Assembly: GCA_048213135.1 (NCBI GenBank)
Contig: PS015148.1
Coordinates: forward strand, 48,982 to 112,981
DNA length: 64,000 nt
DNA from: Reclinomonas americana ATCC 50394
Taxonomy: Eukaryota
Direction: 5' to 3'
Part shown: positions 579-63,000 of the stretch, one piece after another
Layout: each line of letters starts with the position of its first letter
How positions within the stretch are numbered: position 1 is the first letter of the stretch
Notes under the pieces: generated by a model
Seen by the model: only the letters and a program-made list of their open reading frames with translations
Told to the model about the DNA's origin: nothing
Database searches by the model: none
Translations under genes and position numbers: made by a program

Positions 579-3500
579 TCACAGCTCGCGGGTGAAGCCT
601 CCCAGTTTCTCGCGCACTTCGCGCATCATTTCTCGGGCGTCGATCGAGGTGGGGCGTGATTCGTCGTACAGTGACATGCACCTGTGGGTGGCGGTTGGTC
701 TGTGCTGCAAAGGCTCCATCTCCCTTGTACATCCACCGTTGGTGCTCTCCGCAAATCGCTCACTCTACTGCGCTTCCCTTGATGTGCTGTGTCAGATGCA
801 AGGCGTGCGCCTCTCCTCTCGTCTCCGTCCCTCTCCTCCCATCAACTTTACGCAACTGCACCCCCAAATGCAACATTCCCCGCGCCACATCCTCCGGCCA
901 CTCGCCAGCATCCCGGTCGACCTCGGCCAGTGCATCCACGGTGGACGGGTTGCGCTCCCATCGCGGCGCCTGGGTCACGAGCACGCGCGCCTCTCGTCCA
1001 GTCAACAACTGCAACAGAATCAAGCCGAACGCGTGCATATCCATTGACTTGCGGATCTCGCCAGAGCGCAGGAACAGCGGGTCGACGTAGTGCGGCGAAC
1101 CAGAGTGCGTGCCAGTGTACCGGTGAGTCTGTCGCGATCGAGGGAGAGGGAGAAAACAAAAAAAAAACAAGTTGAGCTTTGCATAGTTGGTCGTCGACGA
1201 GTCGTCACCCACGCCGCACCTCCCCCTTGTCAAACATGCGCGCAATGCCAAAGTCGGCTAGTCGCGGTTCACAGCGCCGATCGAGCAAGATGTTTGACGG
1301 CTTGAGATCGCGGTGCACCACCTCGGTCTGTGCCACCCGGTGGTTGCATGAGCAACAACAACAGCCGCCGAGCGGGCAGTCGAACGCACACATACCTCGT
1401 GCAAGAAACAGACACCCTCGGCCACGCCGAGTCCGATTTGCACGCGCTCCATCACCGTGAGGGGCACCATGTCGGCTTTCCGTTTCAACAGCCGCACCTC
1501 CAGGTCGTGCCCACTGCAGCAGGTAATAAATGAGAAACAAAAAGTCCGGCACGCGTGCAGAGCAAGAAGAGCGCGCACCGCATAGCCTGATACACAAGAC
1601 ACCGCTCACGAATCTCGTCCTCTGCCAGTGCGGCGTAACCCAGCAACGGCACGAGACGACGGTGACGCAGCCGGCCGAGTGTGATGAGCTGCACAACGGT
1701 GGTCAGGAAGTTTCCTCGTATACCACGCTCCTCCTCTCCATCTTTTCCTTCTCATCGCCCTGCTGTCATCGCTTGCTCTCCCTTTCACCTCTCCCCTCTC
1801 CTCCTCACCTCCACTTTTCTCTCTTCTGGCATTACTCTCCACTGCTCTCTTTTCTCCCTTTGCTCTCATTTTCCTCCGCTTTCCCTTTGCCTCCCCTCCA
1901 TTCCTTTCTCTCTTCTCATCCCACGAATCTTCATCTCCTCTCCTCCACCCTTGTCTCCTCCACTTTTCTCTCTTCTGGCATTACTCTCCACTGCTTTCTT
2001 CTCTCTCTTTCCTCTCATTTTCCTCCGCTTTCTCTGCCTTCCCTCCATTCCTTTCCTCTCTTCTCATTAATCTTCATCTCCTCTCCTCCACCCTTGCCTC
2101 CTCCACTTTCTCTCTTCTGGCATTACTCTCCACTGCTCTCTTCTCTCCCTTTCCTCTCATTTCCCTCCGCTTTCTCTCTGCCTCCCCTCCATTCCTTTCC
2201 TCCATTCTGAACCAATAAATCTTCGTCTCGTCTCCTCTCCCTTTCTCTCTTGTGTGGCCTTTCATCTCCCGCTCTAACCTCCTCTCCATCGTTGCTTCTC
2301 CTTTCCCCTCCCCTCACCTCTCCTTCCCCTTCCCCTCTCTCTCTCTCTTTCATTCCCCTCACCTCTCTCCCTTTGACTTCCCTTCGCTCACCCCTATTCT
2401 CCTTCAATCTCTTCTCCCTCACATCCTCCTTTCCTTTCCATCTCCATTCTTGCTATTCTCCTCTCATTTCTCTTCTGCTCCCTCTCTCCTTCCCTTTCTC
2501 CCTTTCCCTTCCCCTCCCTCTCTTCCTTCCCTTTCCCCTCGCCTCTCCCTTTCCCTTCCCCTTCCCCTTCACCCTTCCCCTCTCCCTCCCCCTTTCCCTT
2601 CCCCTCTCCCCTTCCCTCTCCCCTTCCCCTCCACTCACCTCGGCCTCATACGACTCACTGGCCCACGGCACCTTGACGTCGAGCCGCTTGATCGCCACAT
2701 CCTCTCCGTCCAGCACCGTCAGGTACACCTCACCCTGCCCGCCCTCGCCAGCCTTGTAGCGGGCCGAGAACGCCTCTGTGGCACGCACGATATCGGCCCA
2801 GTCGTACTTGCGCAGACAAATGCCGCCAAAGCCTGCACACAGACACACACAGTGAAGAGTGTCAACCCTTGCTGAACACAAAGCCACTCCCCCCCTCATC
2901 ACGCAACTGCAGGTCGTGGCAAGCTGCACGCGCAAACGAGCGACTTCGCGAGAGAGCTCCTCACACTGCTGCTGCAGCGTGTGCGTCTGTTCGGCCGCCG
3001 CAGTTGCCGCCTGCCGTGCATCCTCCTGCGCCGCCGCCAACTCGCGTCGCAGCTCGACCGCCTCCAGTGCACTATGCTGCGCCAGTGCACTCGCGACACG
3101 CTGCTCCTCGGCTGCACGCTCGCGCTCCTCCATTGCCGCCGTCAGCTCGCGTCGCAGCTCTGCAATAGTTTGATCTCTCTCCGTCAGCTGCCGCGCCATG
3201 GCTGCCACCTCTGCCGCCTGAGCAATCACAGACAAAATGAGGAAGGATGACTTTTGATTCGCGCTACAAAAACGACGCACTCCTGCAGCCTCCGCCGCTC
3301 GTGGTGCCGCCAGCTGCCGCAGCTTCAGCCTGGCACGCTCCAGCTCCTGCACCGTCTCCTGCGTGTGCATATGATCTCGCGATGTGCACCGCTCTCGCAG
3401 CGTCACCGTCTCTGACAACAGTTGCACCGCCTCGGCCACCTCATCGACCGTGTTGCCGTGCGCCAGCGCCACGCCCAGTGCATGCGCCGAGTGGAGTCGC

Positions 3501-4793: not shown

Positions 4794-8065
<3,272 letters not shown>

Positions 8066-8470: not shown

Positions 8471-10989
8471 TTACACCACGGTACGCGGATCCGAGCAGTA
8501 GAACTTGCCCTGGTTGAGCGTGTCGATCAGACGCATCTCTTGGTCCGTCAGCTCAAAGTCGAAGATATCAAAGTTCTCACTCCGATGATCCGAGTCCGTC
8601 GTGCGCGTCAGCACAACTGCGCGTAGCGTGCGTGGGTAGGTAAGTCACTGAGTGCAAGCAATCAGAGACAGACACTGGTACGCACCGTTGCCTTGCTGCA
8701 GGTTCCAGCGCAAGAAAATCTGCAACCAGAGAGAGAATCAGTCATTACTCGCACGCCAATCAATTCATGGTTGTCAGTGATGATATACCTGCGCGAGCGT
8801 CTTGCCGTGCCTCTCGCTGATAGTCTTGACGTCGTCGTTCGACACGTCAATCAACTGTGCATGCGCAGTGATCGTCAGCAGTCAAGATGACAGAGAAAAG
8901 TGTCTGCCACCATCCACACACGTTGCCAGTGCCGAGCGGCGAGAACGCTTCGACCACGATGCCACGGTCGCGGCAGTAGCGCACCAGGGCACTGAGCGGG
9001 CAGACGTGAGTTTGTTTGTGAGGAACGTGTGACAAATACAACAACAAGCACTCACCGCCGAGTGAGGCGCGGATGCACCTCCACCTGGTTCACCGCAGGC
9101 GGCACCACACACTCGTGGATCAGCTCCTCCAAGTGCGAGATCTCAAAGTTGGAGACGCCAATGGCACGGGCGCTGCGTAAGCATGCCGCGAATTAGTGCA
9201 CTGCAGCAGTGATAACCACAACAACAACAACACCACCAACCGGCCGGTGGAGTGGATCTTCTCCATTGTCTTCCACGTCTCCAGACGGAGGAGCGAGTTT
9301 CGCGTGTCCGTCTCGTCGCTGTAGCACAGTTAGCAGAAGGGCGGATCGCAGAGGAGACGGCATGGTCACGCACAGATCATGGGCGCCTGTGTGTGTATCG
9401 ATCACGAGTGAGTGAGTGGCAATGTGATCAAAAGGAAACGCATGAATTGCCTCACCAGGCCAGCCGATCAGGTACAGGTCGACATAGTCCACCTGGAGGC
9501 GCTCGAGCGAGTTGTGGAAGCACTCCATGGCCTTGCCGCGACTGCGCGAAAAGTGTCAGCGTTACAGGAGCTCACACACGAGTACCACTCGCACGCAACC
9601 CCAGGTGCTTGTCGTCCAAGCGAGTGGTCAGGAAGATCTCGCCACGAGGCACTCCAGAGTCGCGAATGGCGCGGCCCACTGTCATCACCAGCACCACCAG
9701 TTAGCTATAGCATGATTGACTTGCATACATGATCAGATGACCAGCAACTGTTCGACTCACCCTCCTCCTCGTTGCCGTACTCGGCAGCGGTCTGCGCAGA
9801 TTGTCAGTCAAGGTTCTCATCGCCTCGCTCACATGCACCTCTCACACACTCACATCAATGAGGCGGAAACCGGAGCGCAGAGCGCCCAGCTGTCGCGTTC
9901 ACAAACATCAGTATCGTTCTTGTCGACAACTCGATTCTGCCACCACTCACCACCGCATCGTAGCAGTCGTCACCAGTCAGGTTGAGAGTGCCAAAGCCGA
10001 GAACCGGCATGCGCACTGGACGGCCGTCGCGCACACTCGGCGTCTTGAGTGTCACCATCGGCTGGTGCATGAAAGAGTAGCGCGTGCCGAGACCGCCTCC
10101 TCCCACCGTGCCCACTCCACCAGTGCCAGTGGTGCCGTAGATCTGCGACCCAAGGCCCTGCTGGTAGATCTGCGATCCGACGCCCTGCTGGTAGCCGCTG
10201 GTGGGGGTGCCGTAAATCTGGGAGCCCTGCGGGTATCCCGAGGTGAAGCCACTCACCGGGATCTGCCGACACCACCACATGAGCAGACTGAGATCATCAG
10301 TGACGGGCGACGGCATCACTCACCGAGCGCACTCCACTGCGCAGTGGCACGCTGCCGGAGACGTTCGACAGGCCAGTGGTGCCGGTGCCACGCGTGTAGT
10401 CTTGCGAGAGCGGCACGCCCTGCTGCTGCTGCAACTGCTGCTGCTGGCGCCAGACGTCGCCAGTGCCCACCTGCTGGTGCTGCAACGGGCGCTGCGGATA
10501 GTTGACCGACTGCTCCGGGACGGAGAAGGGATAGGGGCCAATGTTCTGCTGCTGCTGGCCCAGGCCCTGGCCCTGGCCCTGCGCCCACTGGCGTTGGTAC
10601 TCGTACGCCGGCACCTGCTGCGTCTGCTGCGACGACTGCGCCCACTGGCGCTGGTACTCCGGTTGCTGCTGCTGCTGCGTCTGCGACTTGAGGTACGTGT
10701 ACTGCGGCTGCTGCAGCGTCTGCGACACCGGCTTCATCTGCTGCTGCTGCTGCACGTACTCGGGCACGTCGCGGCCGAGCGTCGACGACGACGTCACACC
10801 GGTGCCGGTGGCGGTAATCGGAATCGCACGGCTCGTCGACGTGGTCGACACCTTTTCACGCGTCTGCACATAGGCACCAGCAGCAGCAGCAGCAGGAGGA
10901 GGAGCAGTGGAGTGTTAGGCGTGATGATGCGAAGAGGCAAGAAGCACTTGCGAAACAGATTGATGATCTACAAACGCAACATACGACAT
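8471..10989 (-). CDS. Aldo-keto reductase paralog 2 with Q/G/T-rich N-terminal extension; probable pseudoenzyme
   Basis: MSY|TREKV start, ~250 aa Q/G/Y-rich region, then [65 protein letters not shown]. Confidence 0.88.
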
Positions 10990-11595: not shown

Positions 11596-14500
11596 TCACT
11601 CGACCACTCGCGGGTCTCGGTTGTAACGGCGACCCTTGTTGATTCTGTCGATTGTCTCCATGTCGTCTTCGGTCAACTCAAAGTCGAATACCTCCAAGTC
11701 CTCCTTGCGATGGTTTGCGTTTGAGGTGCGCACGACCACAGCTACGCAAGCGAGTCAGTCACTCGGCCGAGCTAGCACCTCGCTGTCTGAGGTACACTCA
11801 CCATGACCCTGTTGGATGTTCCATCGCAGGAAAATCTGCGTCAAGACAGCAAGAGAATCGGTGACCACAGTGCATGAAGAAGTGTCAGGGCACCTCGACG
11901 CTCACCTGTGCAGGGGTCTTGTGGAGGCGAATGGCCACTTTGTGTGCTTCATTCATCGCACGGATAGTGCGATCGCCCACGCCAGCATTGAGACGCTTGA
12001 GAGCCGACGGCGGCTTCACCATCTGCAGCATCGCGGGGGGATCAGCGTTGCAAAGATGAGAAACGAGAGATACAGCAGCTGCGACTCACATGCCCAGCCG
12101 CCAACGCTGAGGCGGCCATGACCACAATCGCGTGGTCGTGGCAGTAGCGCACCAGAGGTCTGCATGTATGTGTGTGTGAAGGCAGAGACGGAGGCAGTCG
12201 ATGCACACAGCATGCGCAACTTGCGTGTGAGCTTCGGGTGCACCTCGATCTGGTTGACTGCCGGCGGAATGGTGCACTCGTGCAGCAGTGCCTCCAGGTG
12301 CGAGATCTCAAAGTTGCTGACACCAATGGCGTGCGCCCTGCATGTATACGGATCAGTGCAGTGAGCGTCTGATGCAAAGTGACACGCCAGCACTATGCGC
12401 AACTTGCCACTGGCGTGGATCTTCTCCAGCATTTCCCACGTCTCGCGTCTTAAGGCTGCATTGCGTGGATCTGCCGCTGACCTGCAATAACGATGTGAGG
12501 GAGATACGATGACCAACGGCGAAAGTACGGGAACTCAACAGATCGAGAGCGCCTGGCCAGCCGACGAGGAACAAGTCAAAGTACTCGAGACCGAGATGCT
12601 CCAGCGACGTCTGGAACGCTTCCAGGGCCCGTCCTCTCCTGTGGACACACACAGTAAATAACATGGCGGCGGTGGGTGCGACAATACAGTATGTCACGGA
12701 CCCCAGATGACGGCCATCCAACTTGCCCGTCACAAAGATCTGACTGCGGGGCACCTTTGAGTCGCGGATCGCCTCGCCCACTGTTGTGTGACGGTGAGTG
12801 CGTGTGAAGAGTTTCACGTCCGCATACGTAGGCGCGCACGCACCTTCAGATTCATTGCCGTAGAGGGGGCTCGTCTGCATGTAGCCAGTGCGTAAGATGT
12901 GAAACGTGAGGAAATATAGAGGAGAAGCAGTGCACACTCACGTCAATATGGCGGAAACCAGCCAGCAACGCTCCAAGCTGTGCACACTCGGTGAGAAGAA
13001 CAGCTCACAAACCACCAGCGCCCCATCAGCGACAACTCACCGTGGCCTTGTATGCATTCTCGCCGCGCAAATGGTTCGTGCCAATGGCGATGATCGGCAT
13101 GTGGATCATCTCGCCCTCGGCACTCGGTGTGCGCAGCGTGATGGTTGGCACGGCCACCGTGTCATACGGCAGGCGTCGGAAGCTGGTGGTCGAGGTTGGT
13201 TGCTGCTCCTGCTCCTTCTCCTGCTGCTGCTGCTGCTCGCCGCCACTGGTCTCACCTCCCGGTGTCACACCCGACAGTGCACCGCTCGGCAGCACGTCAG
13301 TCACCAGTCCGGCGGTCGGCGGCTTGGCGGCCACGATGCTGCTGGCAAATGGCACCGCCGCCGCCGCAATGGGACCAGCCAACACCTCGGCAGGCACCTG
13401 TGGCACGAGGTTGCGCGGCACCGTGACCACCATGGGCACCGGAACCAAGTCCGTGTCGCCGCCAGCACCGCCACTGATTCGGCGAATGGACATGGGAATC
13501 GGCTCGCCGTCGCCGCCTGGCGTCACGGCAGTGGCCAGCAGTTCGGCTGTCAGTGGTGGGTTCAGCACGCCACCACTGGGAAGGAGACCCCCTCCAAGAG
13601 CGCTGGGTTGCGACGCCGCCGCAGCGATGGCCGCACCCGTGGCAGCCGTGCTCAACGCAGGCGACACCAGATCGGCGGGATTGGTGATGTTCGCAGGTGC
13701 AGCACGTGGAAGTTGCTGCTGCGGCGGCGGCGCACTCGCCTCAGTTGTGTGCGGCCGGCTGTGTCGGTGGTGGTGTCTGGTAAACTGGACGGGGACTTGG
13801 CGCGGCACGTGCGACTGCAGTGCGCCAGTGGCGGCCAAACTCTCCGGGCCAAATGTCACCGGCTTTGGCGACTCGACAAGTGGCCGCGGCACGACAATGG
13901 CCGGCATGGTCTGCGGCCGCGACGGCGGGAACGACAGAGTCGGCTCGCGTGCTCCTTGCAGCCCCTCGTCACCCTCGTCTTCGTTGTCCGTCGAGAGCGG
14001 TTCAATGAAGCGGCGCGACAAGGGCACAGCAGGCGGGATATTTTCCTGTTCCGCCATCTGCGGCTGCCACGGCGGCGGCGCAGAGGACGAGGGGAAGTCC
14101 AGCAGCGGCTCCTGTTGTTGTGCGGGAATTTGCGACCAGCCGCCCTCGTCACCCTCCGTGGGCAGCGGCTCGAAGAAACGAGAGTACGGCTGCTGCTGCT
14201 GCTGCGGCGGCGCCCACTGTTGCGGGAAGTCGATCACTGGTTCCTCTTGCTGCTGCCAATCGCTCGGCTCGCCCTCCTCCTCCATCGGTAGTGCTTCAAT
14301 GGTGCGACTCTGCGCCGCTGGCGCCGCAGTCCACTGCGGCGCAGCAGCGGGGAAGCCGATCAGCGGTTCCTGCTGCTGCTGCTGCTGCTGTTGCTGGGCC
14401 CAGTCGATCGGCTCGTCCTCCTCCGGCAGTGCCTCGATCGTGCGCTGCTGCACCGGCTCCGCCCACGGCTGCGACCGCGGGACTCCGCCGGCAAAGTCAT

Positions 14501-18293: not shown

Positions 18294-20549
18294 TTAGAAC
18301 TTACTTGGACCCCCCATTGCGGCCCCGACGCCCAGGAGAATGGTCACGCCGTAGCCGATGCACACACCCAGCACGAGGTTGGTGATTGCGAAACTGTGGG
18401 ATCTGTGAGTATCGTTGCGCGCCCGCTCTCATGTTCTCCATCGTGCGTACCTCCACACCTTGCTGGCATCCACATTGTCCTTCAGCAACTGCACAAAGTA
18501 ATACGGTTGCGCAATGGGCGCTCGGTTTGACCACTGCTGCGCGATGCTGGTGACGCCGTCGTTGTACATGGCGATATCTTCATCGCTGTGCAGCGGCGAC
18601 GCGGTGAGCTCCGGTCGCCGTGGCAGTGAGAAGAATGACGAAACGCACTTTGCATGGAGGAGACTCGCCGACGCCTCCACCACGGTAGACGATGTGGGAT
18701 GCGTCCACGACTGTTGACACGCAAGGCGCGCCTGTGTGCACGTCTCCTCCGAGCCGGTGGTGTACTGTGCAGTGGATGAGGACGGATTGCAAGCACCTTG
18801 CTTTCACGGCGAACATACCTGCTTGCACACGACGTATGCCTGTTGTGCGAGTGCAGCAAGTCAGAATCAGCAAGCGTGAAGTACCTCGCCCACCCTGGCT
18901 TACACACCGATACTTTGGCGCCTACTTGTGCGTCGCGATCCGACGTGTACAGCGGGGCAACGGCCCTGCGTGAATAGCAGCAAGTGAGCACTAGCAGCAT
19001 GTTGGGCAAGCTTGAATGCTAGCTTGGTTGCCCCAACCAGAATGTGTAGCTGTGCCAACGACAATAAGCAACACTAGGCGAGAAACTCGTTTTCCCCACA
19101 CAACGCCACGCAACAAGGTTGTATCCTCGCTCGTGCCGGTCTCGAGGCACTGTGAGAACGACTGTTCGGCGGCGATGAAGAACCCCGGTTGCAGGTTGAA
19201 CTGGTTTGCCACGTCTATAGAGTGCATTCGGATGCTCAGCTGGACGCATCCACCACCACAGCCACCACCACCACCGCTCACATCTCAACACACCTGCCAG
19301 TCCCAGCTGGCGCACCTGCTCTACGGTTACCGGCGCCCCGTGATCGTACTCACGCCATTGTCGAACCACGGTGTAGTAGCGAAAGTCTATTCACAAATGA
19401 GTGAGTCAAATGTGCAGGCACAGAGAGAGAGAGAGAGAGGCTCTTCCTCCACGCTCAACTGTAACCCACGACGGCACCGACGACGATGAACACAATGCCG
19501 AAACCGGCAAAGAAGACGTACTCCGAGCAGTGAATGGGACGCTGGGGGCCGTTGCCACATAAGCAGCGGTAGCAGAGCCGCACCGTGAGAAACTGGAGGT
19601 AGACAAAGCCGCCTGTGATGCAGTCATCACGGTGTGAGACCACATCGCGTGCGTTATCCTATCCTCTCGCACGACTCACCGACACAGCTGACAAGCACCG
19701 CATTGAGGGTCCCGTTGGTTCTGAGTGGTTTTTCCCCAACAAGTAAGCACACGACTGACAGAGCGAGCTGGTGACATGCAGCACGCAACTTGGCGGCCAG
19801 TGTGAGGCTGAGCGCCAGCAAGCAGAGACTGACGACAAAATACAGCAGCGGCCACAAATAAAGTCGCGCTTGTGAGCCGCACTTTCTTGCACGGCACAGG
19901 CCACGGCGTTTCCGCACAGGCTGCACTCTGTAGTGGTGGGAGGGAGCACGCTGCAGTTCAGAAAGAGAGAGAGAAAGAGGGCAACCAGTGCAGGGTCGAC
20001 GCAACTCGACAGCGACAGGCGGTGGTGCTGTTTTCGTCGGCGAGAAGCTGATGGACAGAAACGACGAGTTAGTTCACCAGCTACGCGAGGTACATCGCTG
20101 TTACTGACGCACATTGGCTTGCCGGCTGTGGGTGGCGGCCTGCGTGCGCAGAGTGAGATGATCCGCACACATGGAAAGTGGTCTTGATTACGATCTCTCG
20201 CAACTGTTTCGTCGGCCTGCAGTGCACAGCAAGTGAGTGAGATGAAGGGGGCGCGAGACTTGGAGCGACGCAACTGTTCCGTGTAAGCTGGCGTCTTCTT
20301 GGCCTCATCCAGACTGTCGCCACACAGTTGTTTGAAAAGATTGCAACACATGTGGGCGAGTGCGCGAGTCACCTGCGCTGCGTCGCCAGGTACGTAGGAG
20401 TGGAGAGCGAGTCCTGACCATGTTGCAGCTCGCCACTGGCATGCAGTGCAACAGTCACCTGCTCGACACGACTGCGCAAGTTGTCCACGGAAAGCATTGG
20501 AGCCAGATCTGCGACGATTTCGTCGACAGTGTGTGCTTGCTGTGCATGC

Positions 20550-20590
<41 letters not shown>

Positions 20591-20765
20591 GTGAGTGGTG
20601 CAGAGTACTATGTGTGAGAGAGACAGGGGGGCACCACGCACCGTGAGACAGTTTTGCAACACAAGCTGTCGGAGCTGTCGTCAAGATATGTCATACAAAC
20701 GGCGAAGGCCGTCGACATGCCACGCGTGCACAGTGATACGCAACAAGCTCGTCGATGTTGACCAT
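18294..20765 (-). CDS. Uncharacterised membrane protein, paralog A: N-terminal helical (wHTH-like) domain, 3 TM, large loop, C-terminal TM
   Basis: About 17 small exons reconstruct MVNIDEL|LRQLVLQNCLT..., LWPLLYFVVSLCLLALSLTLAAK, GGFVYLQFL, VFFAGFGIVFIVVGAVVGY, NQFNLQPGF, YNDGVTSIAQQW, AITNLVLGVCIGYG; colinear homology and shared intron positions with 40962-44783. Confidence 0.75.
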
Positions 20766-36056: not shown

Positions 36057-36135
36057 TCCCTCTGTGTGTGCGTGCGTGTGCGTGGAGGCACACTCAACGA
36101 AAGCCCGTTGGCCCTGCTGCGTGAAAGTTCAGCAT
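34125..36135 (-). CDS. UBAC2: Rhomboid-like pseudoprotease with C-terminal UBA domain (UBAC2/Dsc2-like)
   Basis: MLNFHAAGPTGF start, GPYCLIFAF, FTVLGVSLSDKSFIYLLALQ, hydrophobic segments, C-terminal VATLMDMGFSREDAISALQETNGDVEMAAARL; middle exons in gap. Confidence 0.8.
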
Positions 36136-45603: not shown

Positions 45604-48096
45604 ATGGCGGATTGTGCCGGGAATGCATGCCGGGAAATTGCAGATCGAAGCTGTCTGACATTTTTTCGATAAGCATGGCGAGCGCGGCTCATGGACTGCA
45701 TTTTGCTGACGAGAGTGGTGCCGAGGCTTTTGCACTGCTCAAGGAAGGCGACGAGCCATTGTTCAACTGTGTGGCATACACGGTGAGCTCCACCCACTAA
45801 TAATCACACTCTTCTCTCCCTCTCTCCCTCTCACTCTCTCACTCTCCCTGCAGTTCGACCGCGCCTCTCCCCTGGCGCTCCTTGTTGATGCGCAGTTGTC
45901 CACTGACGGCAACGTGCTGAACTACGTGAGAGAGCACATCTTGCCTGGTCGCGATGCCGAGGTTCGCGCATACTCTCTCCCCTTTTATCTGCAACCCTGC
46001 GCAGTGCATGTCTCACACCTGTGTGTATGTGTAGATCGTGATTGTGGCCGCGCACGTGCGAGTGGAGGGAGCCTCTGGCACAGTGCTCATCGTTGCGCAT
46101 GTCAGATACCATTTTCGATACCTGCATCTCATTGCTGATCGACTGCCTCCCTCCTTCCATCTCTCTCCTCCACGCAGATACACATCGGTGAGAACGTTCC
46201 GCCACTGGTCCGCGGCAACGTGGCGGCGCGAACAGCGCAGCTGCGAACACTCTTTCCGGTAAGATGCAGTAGTACATTGCATCACTCCACAGCGGTTGCG
46301 CTGAGCTCTCCCACACGCAGGGTGTCACACTGGAGGTGCAGCTCAACGGCGGTGAGGCGCTGGACACGGAGTCGGTGATGCGAGACTTGCAGGCGCGCGT
46401 GCGGCCGCGGCCTGCTGGCGGATCTGGAGTGCGCCAGCGAGTGGCGGCCGCCTCCGCCAGCACGCAGCTGCGCGGACCACCGCCTTCGGCGCTGCCAGCG
46501 GCAAGAGGCGGTAGGGGAAGGGGGCGAGGCGGGGCTGCTGGTCGTGCGCCGATGACGTACATGGACGGCGATCAAGAGTACACGATCCCGCCGTCGCCGG
46601 ATGAGCCGCTGCCGGCCCGTCGACTGCCGGCCAATGTGCCGACGGCTGCGGATCTCGTGTGCGGAGGTTGTGGCGAGACGCGACCGGCCACGTACCGTTT
46701 GGCGTGTGGTCATGGCCTGTGCCCCGCTTGGTGAGTGCTCAAGAAACGAGAGGAGAGACACTTTTCATGTTCCCAACTCATTGTGCACTGCGCAGTGTCG
46801 AGACTCGCCTGCGTGACCTCGTGCGGCAACAGACTCCGGCGGCACTTACGTGTGCGACGCGCGACTGTGGCAGAGGTCGGTGGACTCCCTTTGCTCTCTT
46901 CGCTTTGTTTCTCATGCCATGAGCAGAGGTGCCGGTGGAGGTCGTGGAGCATGTGGCCATCAGTGGACAGCGCCTGGGCGAGGTGGAGGATGCGTACTAC
47001 GAACTGCTGAATCATCGCTTCGCGGAGATGCCGAGCCCAGTGCCGAGAGTGATGCCCGAGGTGGCACTGGCGCCGGGCCTGAAGTGCGAGAGTTGCACCG
47101 ACACTGCGAATCCGACCACCTATCGAATGGCTTGTGGTCACGGCCTGTGCATCGAATGGTCTGCAGCGAGTGCTGCCGCCGTGTTGAATGTTGCCACTCT
47201 GCGCTCACCTGCGCGCCTCTCACAGCCTGGAGGCCACTCTGCGAACGGTGGTGCAGCAACAGATCCCGAAGATGCTTACGTGTGCCCAAGGCGGCTGCAC
47301 GTCAGGTACACTCTCTCGGTGTGCGACAGGAGAGCGAGTTGAATCTTTGTGCTGACTGATGCCATGCAGTGGTGCCCAACGAATTCGTGCAACACGCCGC
47401 CATGTCTGGCGGTCGCTTGGGGCAGGCCGAGGATCGCTACTACGAACTCCTCAACCAGCTGTACTGCGTCTCCAGCAAGAGCCGACCGTGCCCGGAAGTT
47501 GCGATCGCTCCCAGCTTTTGCGCACTGCCCTTCGTGCTGAACTGAATCTCCCCACGTACACAGTGTCAGCGTCCGTGTATCGCCGAGGACGAGGCGGCGC
47601 GTGACGTCAACTGCTTCGTGTGCCACATTCGCTTCTGCATGCGGTGCGGACGCCGGTGGGTCTCCGCCGACGGCGCCACCGTCTGCGGCAATCCGGATTG
47701 TCTGGCGGCAAACCACCTGTTGCAGACTTGCCCCACCATGGTTCACTCGTGGCACGGAGCTGAGCTCTCATCCTTCCCTTGATCTCACCCTGTGCACCAC
47801 TCCTCCCCAGGAACTCGGCGGTGTGGCCGGTCAGACACCCATTTTCCGCGCATGCCCCAAATGCCACTTTATCCAAGGTAATCCGGTGTACAGCCGCTCA
47901 CAACTGCTCCTCGCACTGCTCATCACCTCGTGCCGCCACGATAGAACACAACCAAGGCTGCAAATTCATGGTGTGCCAACGACCCGGCTGCCTCGAAGGC
48001 TACTGCTTCGGCTGCCTGCGACACCAGGCCAGAGACGCCCACGGCATCTGCCCAAACCCATGCCCAGTCGCACCCCGACAGGAGGTGCCAGAGTGA
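45604..48096 (+). CDS. RBR-type E3 ubiquitin ligase with tandem RING1-like domains, IBR and RING2
   Basis: Two C..C...TYR(L/M)ACGHGLC..C...LTC....C units, IBR-like CFVCHIRFCMRC, RING2-like RACPKCHFIQEHNQGCKFMVC...C...YCFGC. Confidence 0.82.
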
Positions 48097-48139: not shown

Positions 48140-51100
48140 ATGATCTCTCTGATGGCCTCCGCGTCATCCTCCTCGCTTCTTGAGGTTCTCCTCACCAAAT
48201 GCCGCGATCTGCTCCACCGCCGTCGCGAGCGACTCCAACGCGGTGGCGCCCTCGGTCGCACACGTTCCATCTCCTCGGCCACCGCTCCCTCTTCCTCCTC
48301 ACTCCTCACACTCTCCTCCTCTGCTCCTCACCCCTCGCTGCTCGCTGCTGCTGTCACACGCACACGAGCCTCCTCCTCATCACAAGTCGGTGAGTCGACT
48401 GTGCGCCGCCACACAGAGACAGAGAAGAAAGACTGATTCTCGTGTGTGACAGCATCCACTGTCAGCAGTGATGCTCCTGCTGCTGAGGACGATGACTATG
48501 GCGATGATGATGATGATGATGAGGGAGCGTTGGACGATGCCGCGTGGCTGCGCAAGGTGCTGGTCCGCGGTGGGCGCGGGGAAGGCTCGTCGCGTGAGAG
48601 TAGTGAGCTAGTTGCGCGCAATGCGCGGCTGCTGGCTCGCTCGTGCATGCTCTGTCACGCCATGACGCGGGCGGCTGCGGCCGCGGCGCCTGTGGTCCCC
48701 GGCAGTGCCATTGCGGTGCCGTCGGCCACCACGGCCAAGGCGATTCTGAGTGGCGAGCAGATGCGCAGTTGCGAGGGCGATTCAGCAGTATGTTGGTGTT
48801 GTTGTTGTCAGAGATGGTGACTGGGGGAGTGCGCAGGCAAGTATGGTGCGTCGGTGTCGCAGTTGTTGCAGCACATGCTGGCGGACTTGGCCGAGTGCAG
48901 GGATCCGGCGGTGCGGGAGGTCGTCTCGCAGGTGCTGCTGGATGCTGCCGATGGTTTGCACGCCTCTTCTTCTCCTTGTCGTCTCGAGGCTCGCTGATTG
49001 TTGAGCCCTTGCGCAGAGCCGCATGGTCTGAGCTGTTGCAAGTCACAGACAGCATCTTCTCGCACTCGCTCACGCCAGCTCTGTGCACAGTGTTGACGCA
49101 TACCACGAATGGACAGCGCGGTGACAAGCTGCAGGAGTTGATTCATGTCGCCGTTCGTCGCGCCTCGCAGCCTGTTGGTGAGCCTGCTCTTTTCGACCAT
49201 GTGGTCGCCGGCTGTCGCCACTCATTGTGTGTTGCCGTGCAGAGACAGACGCCGATGAGCAAGTGGCTGCCGATCCGCCGTTCGCACCGCTGCCTCAACA
49301 TCTGCGCGGCTTTGATGCGGTGGAGGAGCGCAATGTGACATACTTTGTTGCGTGGTGCCTCCCCCCCTCCTCTCTCTCTTTCTCGTCACCCTATACTGAA
49401 ACGACGCCGTGTGCAATGCACAGTCCAAGGATCGGCCACCCAGCACGAGAATGGCGCACGTGCTCAAACTGATTGTCGTCGGCAGTCCGGGTGGTGAGTC
49501 GAATGCAGACGACGAGAACAGGCTCTTGTCCCCACTCACCTGTTCTGTTCAGTTGGCAAGACGGATCTGTGCAACAAGCTCGAGTCGATGCGCTCCTCCA
49601 CGCCTTACAGCGTGGCGAGGCGAGCCAAGGCGGGCTCGGCGTCGGGAATGCACACGCTGTATGCGACGATTCCGGACGGCAGACATGTGGAGATTCTGGT
49701 GCGTCTGTTCGTCTCTTTCGTACTGCTCGCTGCATGCTGATCGCGTGAGGGGTCGCAGATGCTGGACCCGCACAGCCCCAACATCATGGGCAACTTCTTC
49801 ACTCGCGCGCACGCCTGTCTGTGGGTCTTCAGAGTCACCGATATGAGCACGTTTTTCGTTGCGTGGTGGGAACAGGGAAAGGGGTGAGAATGGAGAGGAG
49901 AGAGAAGAATGGGAGCAAAGAGCGAAGCAAGTGAGAAGAAAGGGAGGAGCAAGTGGGAACGAAAAGCGAAGTGAGAGAATGGGAAGTTGAACGAGTGAGA
50001 AAATGGGAGGGGCGAGCGGGAGCGAAGAGCGAAGCGAGAGAATGGGGAGTGAAACGAAGGAGGAAATTGAAGAGGCAAGTGGAAATGCTGAGCGAAACGA
50101 GGATTGGGGAGTGCAACAAGTGAGAAGAAAGGAAGACGAGTGGGAACGAAAAGCGAACCGAGAGAATGGGGAGTGGAACGAGTGAGAACAATGGGAGAGG
50201 CGAGTGGGAACGAAAAGCGAAGCGAGAGACTGGGGAGTGGAGCGAGTGAGAACAATGGGAGAGGCGAGTGGGAACGAGAGAACGGGGAGTTGAATGAGGG
50301 AGAAAAATGGGAGGGGCGAGTGGGAACGAAAGCGAAGCGAGAGAATGGGGAGTGGAACGAGGGAGAAAATAGGAAGGGCGAGTGGGAGCGAAGAGCGGAA
50401 TGAGGTGGGAGCAATTGAGACGGCGAGAGAACGAGAAGTGGAGCGAGTGCAAATGGAATCCTGTACCGCAGTGAAGACGAGAGTGGAAGCAAGTCGTGCT
50501 CCCCCGCTCCTTGTGTGTCTCACAAGTGATTTTCCCACAGAGTCTACCCAATATGGTGGAGACGTGCCGTGAACTCGGTCGACGACGAAACGGGTATCGC
50601 TTGTCGGGCATGGTGTTGGCGAACCAGGTGATTGCATCGTGCGCGCTGCATCCTTGTTCCTCTCGGGATTGCTGACGCCTGGTGTCGCAGGTGGATTCAC
50701 TCGATATATTACCGATGGACGAATGGTCGCCGTCGCAGACCGCGGAGCGACTGAAGCACCTGAGATCCTCCATCGGCAACGTGCGAGTGTGCGTTCATCA
50801 GTCGTGCACATCTGCTTGCTTCTCCCTCGCTGACCGTCCCACCCACCACGCAGAGTTCCATGCAGCGCACAGTGGGAGACAGAGCAGCTGCGGAGGTGTC
50901 TGAACGACTTGATCATGGAGTTGGTGGACCGCGCCGACGCCCACGACTTTGACGACGACGTGTGGCAGCACGAATCGCTGCTGATGGACGATCCAGCGGC
51001 CTACACACCAGTGTCGGGCGCGCTGGCACAGACGGCCATCAAGGGCGGTAAGGCACCGGATGCATCGTCGGCTTCCACCGAAGGGAGGTGTTCGTGTTGA
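48140..51100 (+). CDS. Atypical Ras-superfamily (Rab-like) GTPase with long N-terminal extension and C-terminal CXC
   Basis: KLIVVGSPGVGKT, FFTRAHACLWVFRVTD, VLANQVD, VPCSA, C-terminal GRCSC*; one N-terminal junction (~48950-49017) is ambiguous. Confidence 0.7.
49900..50450. repeat. Intronic purine-rich minisatellite (~60 bp unit, about 8 degenerate copies)
   Basis: gagaatggggagtggaacgag...gcgagtgggaacgaaaagcgaagc recurs throughout the intron. Confidence 0.75.
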
Positions 51101-52008: not shown

Positions 52009-54982
52009 GGCAGAGTGAGGAAGGGACGCAAGGGAACGGGTGCACACGATGGTTTGTCAACGAGTGCAGGTGGAGAGTGTGTGTGTGAAAGAGAGAGGGA
52101 GAGAGAGGAAGGGAGAGAGAAACGCATTGCATGTCAACGAGTGCAGTTGCAGAGAGAGACTGTGATCATGCTGTTCTCATTCTTCATCTCTTTCTCCCTT
52201 CTGCGGTCGTGCTGTTCTCATTCCACATCTCTCTCTCCTCTCCGCCCCTTGCCATTTCAAGACTATGTGATCGTTCTTCATCTCCCTCGACTCCCGCTGC
52301 TTCACCCCTTTCCCCAGTTATTCTCATTCTTTATCTCCCTGCACTCCACCCCACCCTTTCCTCAGTTCCAGAGACTGCTATTCTCGTTCCTCATCTCTCT
52401 CACCACCCTCCGCCCCACCTCTTCGCCGTTTGCGATCATGCTGTTCTCTTTCTTCCTCGTCTCCCTCTCTTCCACTCTCCCCGTTCGCGACCGTGCTGTT
52501 CTCATGCCGCGTTTCTCTCACCTCCCTCTGTGCTCCGCCCCTTCCCGTTCGCGGTCGTGCTGTTTGCATTCCACATCTCTTCAACGCCCACTGCTGCACC
52601 CCGTCCCGTTCGCGACCGCACCGTTTTGCATGCCACGTCTCTCTCCTCCTCCTCTGCTCCACCCCTTCCCTGTTCGCGATCGTGCTGTTTGCATTCCACG
52701 TCTCTCATGTCCTCCTTCTCCTTCATCCCTTCCCCGTTCGTTCTCCTTCCGCATCTCTCATCATCTCCTCTCTGCTCCACTCTTCCACTTTCGCAGTCTC
52801 CTACCTGGTCATGACGGTCTTCGCCTTCATCATCGTCCCATTCGCCTACTTCTTCTACGAGGAGCACGACCCGGACTCGTCGGGCGTCAGTCGCGTGTGT
52901 GCCGCCCTCCGCTACACCATCATCTGCATGGTGATCTTTGTGATTCTCCTCATCCTCGGCCTGACGCTGCAACTCGGCAACTTTAGCGGATCCCCGGAGG
53001 AGTGGATCCGCGCCCTGTTCGACACGGAAAATCGCGGCGTGCAGGCCATTATCTTTCTCGTCACCATGCTGGCCCTCCTCGGCATGTCGGCGTGGGTCCT
53101 CTACGCTGGCTACGGCTTCTCCTCGTTGCCGGTGAACATGATCAGGGGGCGGCAGTCGGCGGCCTCGGAGGGCATCGACCTGGTCGACCGCATCGATCCG
53201 CTGACGATGCAGATTGAGCGGCTGCAGTCCAAGTACCGCATCACGGGCGAGCGCATGACCGAGGCCGATCGGGAGAAGCTGGAGCGCATGAAGCAGCGCA
53301 AGGAGTTGCGGATAAGCGGGAGGGGTGGGTGGGAAATGAGAGACACAAATGGCTTACCGTGATGCAGATTGTTGAGCTTCCAGGCACACTCGCTGCAGGA
53401 GGCGGACCAAGGGTGCGCCGCCAAGATCGAATCATGTATGGCGCCGTTCCGCGTGCTGCTGGGCTCCCTGCTGTTGCTGTTGTCGCTCTTTGTTGTGGTG
53501 TCGCTGTTTATCACCGCGCTGGATCGGGCCATCAACTCCATGGTAAGAAGATGAAGGCGCTAAAGAGGAAGAGGCAGAAAGGAGATCGGGACAGAGAAAC
53601 AGAGGCAGAGGAACAGAGAGACAGAGGCAGAGAACGTGACGGAGGCAGAGGGAGCGACTGAGGCAGAATCGGAGACAAGAGGCAGAAAAGAAATGACGAT
53701 AGAGGAACTGAGCCAACGACAGAGACAGAACAGAGGGACAGAGAGGGACAGAGGCAACGACATAGATAGAGGCAGCGATAGACACACACACGCACACACA
53801 CATACACACACAGAGAGAGGGAGAGAGAGACAGAGGCAGAGAACGTGACGGAGGCAGAGGGAGCGACTGAGGCAGAATCGGAGACAAAGGGCAGAAAAGA
53901 AGTGACGAGAGGGACAGAGACAGAGCAGAGAGAGAGAGAGAGAGAGAGAGTGAGAGAGGAACAGAGGCAGCGATACACACACACACACGCACGCACACAC
54001 GCACGCACACACACACAGAAAGAGAGAGAGAGAGCGACAGAGACAGAGACAGAGGCAGACATGTACAGAGACAGATAAGAGAGAGAGACAGAGAGACGGA
54101 GAGTGAGATAAAGGCAGAGAAAATGTTGTTCGTGGTGTTAGAAGGCTGAGAAATCGCGCCCCGTCTCTCGCACTCACATTGACTGACTGTGTTTACACAG
54201 TGCGGCCTCTCATGCGGATTCATCCTCAACAAGCCGCACCTCTTCAATCCTCTTGACAGACTGCTCACCGTGCTCTCCAAGGTGTGTTGGTGGCCTGATG
54301 AAGGTAACATGCCGGGGCGTTGCATTGACCGTGGCGCCGCAGTACTACCCGCTGGACTTGATATTCCTGAGCGGCCTCATGTTCTATGTCTTGCTGGCCT
54401 CCATGTCGGGTCTGGTGCGCATCGGATTGCGGGTGCTGTGTGTGGAGGTTTGTTGCCCCCTGCAGGAAGCTGTCCATCCCAGATGCTTACCGTGTGTGCG
54501 TCAGCTGTACCAGGTGCGCAAGCACCGCACGCCACCGCAAGCTCTGCTCTTGATGAGTGTGGTCATCATGTTCATCGTGCTGGTGTTCAGCCTGCTGTTG
54601 GTGTCGTTTGCACCGCAGTACGCCACGTTCGGGTCGCAGAACTTTGTGTCCCCTGTTGCGTTCACATCTCTCAGCCTCTTGTCGTCTCCTCCCGCTCACC
54701 CCCTTCTGCACGCAGAACACCAATGCCACCGAACCGTGCACCGTCGATGCCGCTGTCTCTCAGCTGTGTCGCATGACGGAGATCTCGCGCCTGCACAACC
54801 GCATCATGCTGTCGTCGACCTTTTTTAGTGCTGTATTCTACGTCGGCCAGTGGGCATTTATCGGCGCCTTTGTGGTCGGTCTCATTGTGTCCTTCTGCAA
54901 GGAGCGCGATCCACCAGCCATCAGCAGCAGTAGTAGCTTGAATCACGACGAGGAGGCGGCGGTGGGATTGCTACCGTGGTGA
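51402..54982 (+). CDS. LMBRD1: LMBR1-domain lysosomal cobalamin transport escort protein
   Basis: LWLVPLDVF, FIIVPFAYFFYEE, YAGYGFSSLP, CGLSCGFIL...NPLD, YYPLD, APQYATFGSQ, CRMTEIS; multi-TM; GT-AG introns in frame. Confidence 0.88.
52160..52740. repeat. Degenerate intronic repeat (tgctgttctcattc / tgctgtttgcattcc units)
   Basis: Core recurs about 8 times in the LMBRD1 intron; a second, ~100 bp direct duplication sits at ~53600-53700 and ~53815-53905. Confidence 0.6.
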
Positions 54983-55060
54983 TGTAGATCATACAAGTGA
55001 ATATTAATGAGTGTGTGTTACAACCCCCTCACAAACATGTTCTTTTCGTTTTTCAATGGG

Positions 55061-60051: not shown

Positions 60052-63000
60052 CGCGTCCTCGCCCGCTACCGCGAAAACCTACAACACGTGCGCGAACTCG
60101 AGAACCGCCTCCTCACCGAACCCGTCGGCAGACTGAGCGGACCGGTCTGTCTCATTCCTTCCCCCAATCGTCTCACACCCTTCATTGACTGCTGTGCAGC
60201 AACTCGACGCCCTCCGTCTCTACCGCTGGGCGCAGCGTCAGGAGGAGATCGCCAACGAGACGCTGGCAAAACGCGAAACCGCCGACCATCGCCTTCGCTT
60301 CCAATTCCTCTCCTCGTCCTCCGCCCCCTCGGCCACCGGCCCGCGAAACGACACGCCTCCGCGCTACGGTGGCATCCCCGACGAGACGGCGCACTCGCAC
60401 TTTGTCAATGTGGTGTACGCCCCGCCGCAGCCACCTCCACCACCTCCGCCACGCCAGCAACCACAGCAACAACAGCAGCAACAGTATCAGCACCCACTGC
60501 AGATGTTGGGTGAGCGACATACCGCCACGTCGCAGCATCCGTACCCGTTTCCGTATGTGCCCAACGGCCACCACGCCGTGCCCACACTGCCGTCGGATCT
60601 GGCCGACGCGTCCATGGCCGTGCTGGCTGCGCTGCGGGCCAACAATGAGCGCCTGATGGAGCGCTACGCCGAGCATTTACGCGAGATGCAGGGCGAGTTG
60701 GAGCAGCAGCAGTACGAGCAGCTGCGCACCATGCCGTCGTTCATCTCGGCGTCGTCCACCAACACATCACCGCTGCGTGGCGCCACCTCGGCGACCAACA
60801 CGTTTTCGTCGTCATCGTCGCCACCGCGATCGATCGGTAGCGGTGGCGATATGTCGCCGCTCTCCGCGCGCATGGGTGCCATTCATGCGCCGCCCACCAG
60901 TGGTCAGTGGCAGCCGACGGCGCTCTCATCCGTGCCATACACGGCGCCGTTTCCACCCGCTCCCGCTCCGATTCCGCCAACGCACATGGCCGATTACCCG
61001 CACCGTTACCAGAATGGACACAGCAGTGCGCCGCCGTCGCTCCTGTCCGTTGATTCGGTAGGTGGTGGTGGTGGTGGTGGGGAAGAGGGGAGATAAGGGG
61101 AGGGAGAGGGAAGAGAGTCCCCCTTGTGAGCAGTTGCTCATGTGTGCTCGCACAGCTGCCACCACCCATGACCAACGGTCCCAGCGAGTTGTCCCAGATG
61201 CGCAGCATGCTCGAGGATGCGCTGCGTGAGATGGCCAGTCTGCGAGCGGGAACCCTGGAGGAGATTGGCACGTTGCGGCGCACGGTGGAGGATCTCACGG
61301 AAGAGGTAACTGCTGGATTATAGAAAGTGGATGGATCACATTCTCTCTCGCAGCCACCTGTTCGCCTTTCATCCAAGATCTTCCTTTCTAATGTCTTCTT
61401 GCTCTTTCTCTGTCCCGCCGTGTCTCCCGTTCTGATACTCTCACTTACATCGTTTTCTCCCTGCTCTTTACCTTCACTCTCATCTCTTGCGCTCTCCCAC
61501 TCTGTTGCCTGCACTACATTTCTCCCCCACCGCCGTTGTCTCACTATCTCTCTCTCTCTCTCTCTCTCTCTACATTTCTCATCGTCGACCTTTCGCTGCG
61601 TCAGCCCCCGATCTCCCTCTTTGGTTTCTTCTATTGTTTCGCATGTCCTGCTTCACTGTTGCTCTCTCTCTCTCTTCCCCTCCCCTTTCCCCTCCTGTCC
61701 TCACCCTTCCCCCTCTCTTCCCTCCAGAACCGCAAGCTGAAAGACCAAATGACCAACGTGCGAACAAACTCGGCGCGCCGGCGCATCGCCCACTACTCGG
61801 GCACTCTGCGGAGGCGAACACCTTCGCCGCTGTACCACCAACACGCGACAAACTCGCACGACAGACAGCCATCGTATCATCGCCATCACTCCCCTTCAAG
61901 TCGCCACCAACCACTGTCGTCGTCGTCGCCGCCACACTCGCCGCACTCGCGACCGTCGTCGGACCTGTATTCACCCACGCACCGCACTCGCGCGTACCGC
62001 TCCTCGCGCTCCCCGTCGCCTCGCTCTCGCACACCACCCTCGTACCGACGTCGAGGTCGTGCGTCTCCGTCGCACGAGAGCCATTACCGGCATGATCAGC
62101 GCATGGATAGCGCCGTGGTTGCGTCATTTGCAAAAGAGTGCCCTCCCTGTCAACTTCAAATTTCTCACTGCTCTTTTTCTCTGTGCACAGTTGGCCCCAC
62201 TCCATTCAGATCCGTCGTCGGCGTTCCGCTTGCACAACTCGCTGCCGGTGTCGCCGCTGTCGTACGACGTGCTGAATGGGACCGACGATGCGCTGGAGGA
62301 GTTGCCGCTTGATGGTGGAGCCGAGGAGGATCGGCAGTCGAATGAGTCGGCCTCGCGGCCTTCCATTTCGTCGCACTCGAGTTACCACTCAGCAACTGCG
62401 CTCGCCGCTGCAGGTCTCGGCACCGCTCGCGCTGGTGATATGGGTGGTGGTGGCGGGGGTGGTGTCGGCAGCGGAGCTGCAACGGCGGGCGGAGCGCCGT
62501 CGCGTAACACACGCGTGCGCACGCCACCACCCGCCGCGGAGCAGGATGGTGAACCACCGCGACGGCGGCGACGACCGAGTCGCGACACGCAGAATCCATC
62601 GCCCACACGTGTGCGTTTCCGCGATGAGCACCCGGTGCTCCTCGGGCATGAGGGACGCTCGGAGGATGAGGACGAAGGTGGTGATGCAGGATCGATGCCG
62701 GGGTCGGCAGGCGCAAGGTGAAGAGAGAAAGAGGGAGAGAGGGAGGCAGAGAGAGCGAGAGAGAGAGAGAGAGGGAGAGAGCAAGGAAGGGGGTAAAAGT
62801 GGGAGAGAGGGAGAGGGAGAGAGAGAGCGAGTGAGATAGAGAGTGGGCTTTGTAATCGTCTGTGGTTTCTCATTTCCTCTCTCTCTGCTAACTCCATGCG
62901 CAAGGTGAACAGAGGGGAGAGAGAGCGAGAGGGCGAAGAGAGAGAGAGAGCAAGGAGGGGGGGGGGGAAGTGGGAGAGAGGGAGAGAGACAGAGAGGGGA

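Follow-up and report, generated by a model that had tools for sequence, protein, structure and literature searches.

In a 64-kb window of Reclinomonas americana ATCC 50394 (64,000 nucleotides of contig PS015148.1), introns open with two kinds of 5′ splice site. Beside ordinary donors such as GTGAGT, GTGCGT and GTGTGT, a second group, which reads GTTGCGT, GTTGAGT or, in rare cases, GTTACGT, consists of genuine GT-AG 5′ splice sites served by the major spliceosome and opens roughly one in three of the host's short introns. Homology shows that cleavage sits before the GT, and the GTT class is probably a real second donor class that is read in a register shifted one base downstream of the cleavage site. 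All of these results are drawn from protein homology and sequence statistics within the window, which includes 14 runs of N amounting to 7,482 bases. Among the 40 introns of five modelled genes (one citrate synthase, three tandem aldo-keto reductases (AKRs) and one Rab GTPase; 34 confident introns, an N-spanning intron at 27853 and five Rab introns), 14 are of the GTT type, including those at 27158 and 5168, neither of which is strictly verified, and 26 are ordinary. A first-pass annotation, made from the sequence alone, had proposed the shifted register as a main mode of splicing in this organism and had put the class at roughly a quarter of the introns that it inferred. A frequent and tightly defined second class bears out part of that proposal, and "main mode" is too strong where ordinary donors make up 26 of 40.

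The first-pass annotation listed 44 positions as GTT-RMG donors, and the motif GTT[GA][CA]G is present at every one of them, on the strand given and with the coordinate at the first G (Table 1). GTTGCG is the commonest form (at least 31 sites) and is followed by T, C, A or G; GTTGAG comes next (8–12 sites), and GTTACG occurs once. Counting both strands, the window holds 27 copies of GTTGCGT, 25 of which are in the list, compared with 4 of GTAGCGT, 12 of GTCGCGT and 10 of GTGGCGT. The excess over a maximal-order Markov model is small, with 18.3 copies expected, and numbers of copies by themselves are weak evidence. The only copies outside the list are at 54655 (+) and 11300 (+). The former has a strict 3′ signal (defined below) 50–95 nt downstream, lies in a plus-strand gene region adjoining an LMBR1-like gene, and may be a further member of the class.

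The position of the cut was read from profile hidden Markov models of three unrelated families. The citrate synthase profile used 94 of at least 120 homologues listed, among which none exceeded 69% identity over one exon. For AKR, 53 of 62 homologues were used, the query being a 46-aa exon open reading frame (ORF); an intron-containing AKR ORF as query gave 1 match, compared with 62. The Rab profile was built from six trimmed GTPase domains of 5 proteins, a 33-aa exon query having given 11 matches, several of them mis-predicted proteins. A spliced profile-to-DNA aligner that charges GT, GC, GA and AT donors equally picked the listed GT as the intron start at 12 of 14 testable sites (citrate synthase 5/5, AKR 5/7, Rab 2/2). 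The two ambiguous sites, 5168 and 12539, lie in length-variable loops; the aligner uses them only if it is restricted to GT donors, which costs 1.5 and 4.7 bits, respectively. A junction three bases later (the +3 cut, GTT/GC or GTT/GA, with the slash marking the junction) keeps the frame and adds one residue. In the 11 cases that can be scored, this cut always comes out lower, the penalty each time being one extra residue inserted into an otherwise gapless conserved block, as in KL-YPNVDF.

At citrate synthase, hmmsearch was run on every candidate junction as a second scoring, and at each of the five testable sites no other GT/GC/GA/AT-AG junction scores as high as the listed cut (Table 1). 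The runner-up at 27853, 28946, 29381 and 30022 is the +3 cut, with a GC or GA donor, and is 5.0–6.3 bits worse; 29925 differs in that its next-best junction, 7.1 bits lower, has a GC donor 3 nt upstream. For 30022, dropping the dinucleotide rule altogether still leaves the GT-AG junction alone at the top (71.7 vs 67.0 bits). The first-pass annotation had argued that cutting at this GT restores conserved motifs, and two of its examples agree with the profiles: LYPNVDF is restored at 30022, where KL/YPNVDF is the best junction, and the AKR motif HIDTA is restored at 6634, where the aligner picks FRHID/TA.

The citrate synthase gene (27105–30497, +) contains 11 introns by the aligner, whose donors read, in order, GTGTGTGT, GTGTGTGT, GTTGCGTC, GTTGAGTA, GTGCGTGC, GTTGCGTT, GTCTGCAT, GTTACGTG, GTTGCGAC, GTGCGTTC and GTCTCTTC. 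One more intron, which precedes these 11 and has the donor GTTGCGCG at 27158, falls in the unconserved N-terminus, where the frame is kept and homology does not reach. As a control, the same aligner was applied to citrate synthase loci from metagenomes. Three eukaryotic contigs (L016, L058 and L059) yielded 12 convincing introns between them, all with GTA or GTG donors and none of the GTT class. One of the three, L016 (2523 nt), encodes a eukaryotic citrate synthase with 70% identity across 54 residues in one exon, and its architecture is similar, with 7 short introns (56–112 nt) that carry GTAC, GTAA or GTGC donors and none of the GTT class. A close relative of the host was not found among 61 metagenome loci, the best identity being 74% over 35 residues.

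The three AKR paralogues are 2,5-diketo-D-gluconate-reductase-like and lie in tandem on the minus strand at 4800–13000 of the window (AKR-a at about 4.8–7.9 kb, AKR-b at 8.4–10.1 kb, AKR-c at 11.6–13.0 kb), each with about 9–11 introns at shared positions. The sites picked by the aligner in these genes are 6634, 5007, 9599, 12403 and 12220. At five positions in total the donor class switches between copies. The FRHID/TA junction reads GAT/GTTGCGTC in AKR-a, GAT/GTGAGTGT in AKR-b and GAC/GTGAGTGT in AKR-c, and at four more shared positions GTT[G][CA]G in one copy is matched, in the same phase, by GTGAGT, GTGCGT, GTGTGT or GTCCGT in the others. AKR-b also has a donor GTTGGTGG at 9234–9240 (-), with 9.1 bits of homology support, G at +5 and T at +6; this donor is an ordinary GTNNGT with T at +3 and lies outside the GTT class. 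A second set of paralogues is the tandem duplicate of a tectonin-domain gene (22300–23400 and 24160–25300, +), 92% identical over 600 nt with introns included. GTTGAGTAT occupies the same position in both copies, with CTGAC and then GCGCAG downstream of it, and indels of 6 and 3 nt separate the copies inside the GTTGAGT intron.

Independent of the protein profiles, downstream 3′ signals distinguish the GTT class from other GT sites. An acceptor matrix was trained on the 34 confident introns, and a strict 3′ signal was defined as a matrix score of at least 5.1 together with a CTNAY motif. Seven AKR introns were left out of the training on grounds of variable loops, an N-run span or length (7797–6671, 6209–6031, 5992–5415, 9455–9387, 9369–9279, 12539–12449 and 12073–11947). 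Among GTNNNN hexamers, 208 have 8 or more copies; when these were scored by a strict 3′ signal 50–95 nt downstream, GTTGCG ranked first (21/66, p = 3.5e-6), ahead of GTGAGT (rank 2, 22/84) and GTTGAG (rank 5, 10/38), and it remained first without the training genes (15/51, p = 1e-4). GTTGTG has the signal at 5 of 44 copies. At the same distance, the strict signal follows 25 of the 44 listed sites and 7 of 63 unlisted GTT[GA][AC]G sites, the latter share being that of the background (10.8% of all 6952 GT sites). A strong 3′ signal lies downstream of 48% of GTTGCGT copies, whereas the controls are at background: 14% for [ACT]TTG[AC]G, which lacks the G at +1, 10–12% for motifs whose extra base is A, C or G (GTA-, GTC-, GTG-) and 7% for the reverse complement. 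A coding score based on about 1087 training codons, weak at any single site and used only as a group statistic, drops from upstream to downstream by +6.4 bits at 30 listed sites outside the training genes, compared with -1.1 bits (standard deviation 8.2) at 5,392 control GTs. Fourteen sites have neither homology support nor a short-range strict 3′ signal; these are entered as proposed donors in Table 1.

The information in the GTT class is confined to -1 and to +1 through +7, with about 1–2 bits at each of the latter. G occupies +4 at 43 of 44 sites and +6 at all 44, although the +6 G follows from the definition of the class and the invariance from +4 to +6 is partly a product of that definition. 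T at +7 marks the real sites, being present at 33 of 44 listed and 7 of 63 unlisted sites. From +8 to +20, the relative entropy is at most 0.10 bit at every position, so the GTT introns do not form a repeat family or a set of mobile-element copies. Introner-like repeated introns are ruled out on this ground, and paralogous introns switch class at fixed positions. The GTT introns are mostly 58–89 nt long, and in length, branch motif (CTNAY) and acceptor (GCAG or ACAG) they match the ordinary introns of the same genes, with which they are interleaved. U12-type introns have a consensus of an RTATCCTT donor and a TCCTTAAC-like branch; this type was rejected, the donors here reading GTTGCGT and the branch and acceptors being those of the neighbouring ordinary introns.

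The last exon base sets the two classes clearly apart. The earlier count of G at -1 in only 4 of the 44 sites is exact, and A is found there at 23. Homology-verified ordinary donors have G at 18 of 22 and A at none, and signal-supported ordinary donors have G at 21 and A at 6 of 33. The depletion of -1 G in the GTT class is significant against both the signal-supported (p = 4.5e-7) and the homology-verified set (p = 0.002), as is the excess of -1 A, 23/44 vs 6/33 in the signal-supported set (p = 0.004). Each site was also folded with the canonical 11-base U1 end, using unmodified RNA parameters and leaving proteins out. Of three explicit registers, the shifted one is best at 27 of 44 sites and the bulge at 2, with mean energies of -0.39 (shifted), +0.71 (canonical) and +1.36 kcal/mol (bulge), the first two both close to zero and all on the assumption of a canonical U1, which may not be that of the host.

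These patterns suggest that pairing is set one base further downstream than the cleavage site, like that of the rare human shifted-register sites. In such a register, the +1 G would stand in for the usual -1 G, opposite C9, the +3 U for the +2 U, and the +6 G and +7 U for the +5 G and +6 U, while the last exon base would stand in for -2, opposite U10. Taking the -2 role, that base would be mostly A and almost never G. Relative to an ordinary AG/GUGCGU, A/GUUGCGU would then have U in the position of the first intron G and be cut one base earlier. Selection of the GU where cleavage actually occurs would come later, through U6, U5 and Prp8, one base upstream of the early-pairing position.

Several observations weigh against this reading. 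The differences of 3.0 bits returned by the aligner are exactly its price for one inserted residue, and thus say only that the +3 alternative always adds a residue to a gapless block. The -1 statistics depend on the choice of sites made in the first-pass annotation. Pairing of the 44 GTT sites with U1 averages -2.25 kcal/mol in duplex energy, as opposed to -7.37 kcal/mol for 25 ordinary verified donors, and the shifted register itself averages only -0.39 kcal/mol with canonical U1. At +5 the GTT class prefers C (36 C vs 8 A), which cannot pair with U1 pseudouridine 5, whereas in ordinary donors the corresponding base is preferably A or T (p = 6e-6). The mirror image expected in ordinary donors, A at -2, is seen in 10 of 22 verified and only 7 of 33 signal-supported donors, and C at -2 of the GTT class is without clear preference (15/44), though the shifted register pairs this position with G11. 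The one-base shift proposed in the first-pass annotation is supported in part: A rather than G at -1 fits a shift and not a bulge, yet canonical U1 pairs very weakly in every register. On that account, canonical U1 in a shifted register is not a comfortable explanation either.

One alternative keeps the canonical register, with the +1 G and the last exon base paired as usual, and loops out one U at +2/+3. The motif does equal an ordinary GTGCGT or GTGAGT with one T added, the added base is specifically T, and passages of PMC4856993 describe such a register as validated for rare human sites. A bulge retains the -1:C9 pair, so a favoured G at -1 is predicted; it is depleted instead, at 4/44 vs 18/22 in ordinary donors, for which reason we prefer the displaced register. 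With the bulge also the best explicit register at so few sites, and the least favourable on average, we consider it quite unlikely. Another alternative is a dedicated variant small nuclear RNA (snRNA), in its simplest form a second U1 that would pair through its 5′ arm with (A)GUUGCGU, canonical U1 serving the GTGAGT-type donors. Such an arm would account for the weak pairing, the +5 C and the -2 patterns, and the class is tightly defined from +1 to +7, a poor match to canonical U1 in every register. Canonical U1 leaves unexplained the preference for C at +5 and the near-invariant G at +4, and in the choice between A and C at the matching position the GTT class and the ordinary donors go opposite ways. 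On the other hand, the 5′ end of U1 is among the most conserved of eukaryotic RNA segments, an Rfam search finds no snRNA gene within the window, part of the +4 to +6 invariance comes from the class definition, and the weakly pairing ordinary donors GTCTGCAT and GTCTCTTC are also spliced, so strong pairing may be unnecessary. We regard a variant snRNA as possible but rather unlikely. The corresponding arrangement, two parallel systems of 5′ splice-site recognition within the major spliceosome whose second RNA is a U1 variant with an arm that resembles ACGCAAC(U), is put forward with the same reserve.

The remaining alternatives question the donors themselves. If the true donors were GC or GA three bases downstream (GTT/GCGT or GTT/GAGT), the frame would be preserved as well, and the aligner does prefer GC at 5168 (the +3 cut, at 5165) and at 12539 (a GC site 13 nt upstream, at 12552). 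The inserted residue in 11 of 11 scorable cases speaks against such donors, which would also leave the need for a preceding GTT unexplained, with [ACT]TTG[AC]G at background; we find this reading very improbable. Chance motifs combined with hand-inferred introns, that is, mis-called exon ends, would be in keeping with the modest k-mer excess (27 vs 18.3) and with the 14 of 44 sites that have no independent support. Against chance stand the homology in three unrelated gene families, the first rank of GTTGCG among 208 hexamers, the 3′ signal at 25/44 listed vs 7/63 unlisted sites and the difference in coding-score drop between listed sites (+6.4 bits) and 5392 control GTs (-1.1 bits), and we give this explanation hardly any credence. 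A second donor class read one base downstream of its cleavage site remains our preferred reading.

Table 1 The 44 listed GTT-class sites. All match GTT[GA][CA]G; the coordinate of a site is the first G of GTT on its strand. Coding scores are upstream/downstream in bits.
Position	Strand	Feature	Evidence
22697..22703	+	GTTGAGT donor, tectonin paralogue A	strict 3′ signal 77 nt; motif shared with paralogue B at the equivalent position
24553..24559	+	GTTGAGT donor, tectonin paralogue B	strict 3′ signal 86 nt; paralogue alignment
27158..27164	+	GTTGCGC donor, citrate synthase intron 1	frame kept from ATG 27105; 3′ signal 77 nt
27853..27859	+	GTTGCGT donor, citrate synthase intron 4	79.9 vs 74.9 bits; aligner pick
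28946..28952	+	GTTGAGT donor, citrate synthase intron 5	85.7 vs 79.6 bits; aligner pick
29381..29387	+	GTTGCGT donor, citrate synthase intron 7	91.4 vs 86.2 bits; aligner pick
29925..29931	+	GTTACGT donor, citrate synthase intron 9	148.9 vs 141.8 bits; aligner pick
30022..30028	+	GTTGCGA donor, citrate synthase intron 10, splits KL/YPNVDF	69.2 vs 62.9 bits
33661..33667	+	GTTGAGT donor	strict 3′ signal 69 nt; coding score 13.7/-6.1
38626..38632	+	GTTGCGT donor, MFS transporter gene	3′ signal 65 nt; coding score 11.9/-5.7; Pfam MFS_1 upstream
47498..47504	+	GTTGCGA proposed donor	motif only; no strict 3′ signal within 400 nt
48768..48774	+	GTTGCGA proposed donor	coding score 12.3/-6.1; first strict acceptor 249 nt
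49347..49353	+	GTTGCGT proposed donor	coding score 5.9/-8.0; first strict acceptor 139 nt
49858..49864	+	GTTGCGT proposed donor	motif only; no strict 3′ signal
53305..53311	+	GTTGCGG donor, LMBR1-like gene	Pfam LMBR1 match stops here; 3′ signal 63 nt; coding score 14.1/-7.8
62118..62124	+	GTTGCGT donor	3′ signal 73 nt
850..856	-	GTTGCGT donor, kinase-like gene	3′ signal 89 nt
2901..2907	-	GTTGCGT proposed donor	motif only; no strict 3′ signal
5001..5007	-	GTTGAGT donor, AKR-a last intron	aligner pick; forbidding costs 4.3 bits; paralogues GTGCGT, GTGAGT there
5162..5168	-	GTTGCGT donor, AKR-a variable loop	ambiguous: GTT/GC with other acceptor 277.3 vs GT-only 275.8 bits; 3′ signal 61 nt
6628..6634	-	GTTGCGT donor, AKR-a, splits FRHID/TA	aligner pick; paralogues GAT/GTGAGT, GAC/GTGAGT at same codon
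9593..9599	-	GTTGCGT donor, AKR-b	aligner pick; 3′ signal 58 nt
10974..10980	-	GTTGCGT proposed donor	motif only; no strict 3′ signal
12214..12220	-	GTTGCGC donor, AKR-c, HPKLTRK/PLVRYC	aligner pick; forbidding costs 4.1 bits
12397..12403	-	GTTGCGC donor, AKR-c, GK/AHAIGVSNF	aligner pick; forbidding costs 4.3 bits
12533..12539	-	GTTGAGT donor, AKR-c variable loop	homology ambiguous; strict 3′ signal 58 nt, ...TTATTGCAG/
19108..19114	-	GTTGCGT donor	3′ signal 65 nt
19453..19459	-	GTTGAGC proposed donor	coding score 14.0/-10.2; no strict 3′ signal
19783..19789	-	GTTGCGT proposed donor	first strict acceptor 197 nt
19999..20005	-	GTTGCGT proposed donor	first strict acceptor 177 nt
20198..20204	-	GTTGCGA donor	3′ signal 65 nt
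20268..20274	-	GTTGCGT donor	3′ signal 58 nt
20738..20744	-	GTTGCGT proposed donor	motif only; no strict 3′ signal
34316..34322	-	GTTGCGT proposed donor	motif only; no strict 3′ signal
35275..35281	-	GTTGCGT proposed donor	motif only; no strict 3′ signal
36092..36098	-	GTTGAGT proposed donor	motif only; N run within 400 nt downstream
41122..41128	-	GTTGCGT donor	3′ signal 64 nt
42169..42175	-	GTTGCGT donor	3′ signal 65 nt
42997..43003	-	GTTGCGC donor	3′ signal 62 nt
43218..43224	-	GTTGCGT donor	3′ signal 80 nt
44466..44472	-	GTTGCGT proposed donor	coding score 7.1/-10.1; first strict acceptor 183 nt
44753..44759	-	GTTGCGC donor	3′ signal 78 nt
55464..55470	-	GTTGCGT donor, Rab GTPase gene	aligner pick; +3 cut 2.5 bits lower; 3′ signal 67 nt
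56740..56746	-	GTTGCGT donor, Rab GTPase gene, FLTKK/IMLDD...WDTAGQER	aligner pick; +3 cut 4.6 bits lower

The genes of the window have a very high density of very short introns, with 12 introns in about 1.44 kb of citrate synthase coding sequence and a typical length of 58–70 nt. Of 34 introns, 30 contain the CTNAY branch motif, and almost all acceptors read GCAG or ACAG. Among the ordinary donors verified by homology, GTGTGT is frequent (5/22), and some verified donors show little or no consensus beyond GT, namely GTCTGCAT at 29642 (+), GTCTCTTC at 30307 (+), GTATATCA at 8788 (-) and GTCCGTGA at 12701 (-). Recognition of 5′ splice sites in this host seems generally tolerant. Massive CT/GA and CCCT-type microsatellites occur throughout (for example, 28960–29090 and 57200–57374; CTCTCTC has 575 copies on both strands) and are partly intronic, as in citrate synthase introns 5 and 7. 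A Pfam search of ten ORFs gave TPR, Tectonin, LMBR1 and MFS matches and left six without a match. Three long open frames have no Pfam family (13029–15083 (-), 685 aa; 49552–51000 (-), 483 aa; 60137–61093 (+), 319 aa), and these may not all be genes, since long ORFs are common in GC-rich sequence. Searches for snRNA genes with Rfam and for transfer RNA genes with a tRNA scan found none within the window.

In the literature on shifted and bulge registers and on the donor consensus of protists, we found no frequent GTTGCGT-type class in any organism; a description under the host's own name is possible. A chlorarachniophyte genome with 27% GC (PMC12730881) is no match to the present case. Displaced or bulged U1 pairing has so far been known only as a rare exception. 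If the shifted reading is true, this organism would offer a natural system for asking how the early U1 register is uncoupled from the later choice of cleavage site by U6 and U5, and it could reveal which change in the snRNAs, their modification or the proteins of their ribonucleoprotein particles permits such donors. Gene finders trained on GTRAGT would mis-model a large share of the genes in this genome and its relatives.

Human shifted-register sites number only dozens and are GUUAAGU-like; those of human genes were reportedly described by Roca and Krainer in 2009, and the bulge +2/+3 register is said to come from Roca et al. in 2012. The donors described here resemble the human shifted sites in having GU at the cleavage site, G at +6 rather than +5, and U1 pairs displaced by one. 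The human sites are rare and isolated, with A at +4/+5 that pairs well with the two pseudouridines, whereas here GUUGCGU places G at +4 and C at +5, the class takes up about one-third of the examined introns, and pairing with canonical U1 is poor in silico. A test oligonucleotide given in a passage of PMC4856993, ACA/GUCAAGUAU, likewise has A as the last exon base. For one extra base after GU, the same passages distinguish two known registers: the shifted one, in which all U1 pairs move by one, and the bulge, which extrudes a U at +2 or +3 and keeps the pairs on the exon side (PMC4856993). Of 201,541 human 5′ splice sites, 54–68 are predicted there to use bulge +2/+3 and 36–51 bulge +3, about 0.03% each, and all validated non-canonical registers together reach 1.5% (PMC4856993). 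The present class shares with these bulge registers (Tan et al. 2016, PMC4856993) an extra nucleotide just after GU that is usually U, but it differs from them, as they are presented in that text, both in frequency, with 14 of 40 introns here, and in the depletion of the -1 G that a bulge would lead one to expect.

In scale, the closer parallels are lineage-specific. Eurytemora affinis has GA or GG donors in about 12% of introns, according to PMC5714493, and tunicates are described in a passage of PMC13326754 as having mostly non-GT/AG introns together with altered snRNA modification. Like these, as far as the two sources describe them, the GTT class is a second kind of 5′ splice site that is specific to a lineage, spread genome-wide and misleading to standard gene models; unlike them, it keeps the GT dinucleotide, and it is the downstream consensus that moves relative to the GT.

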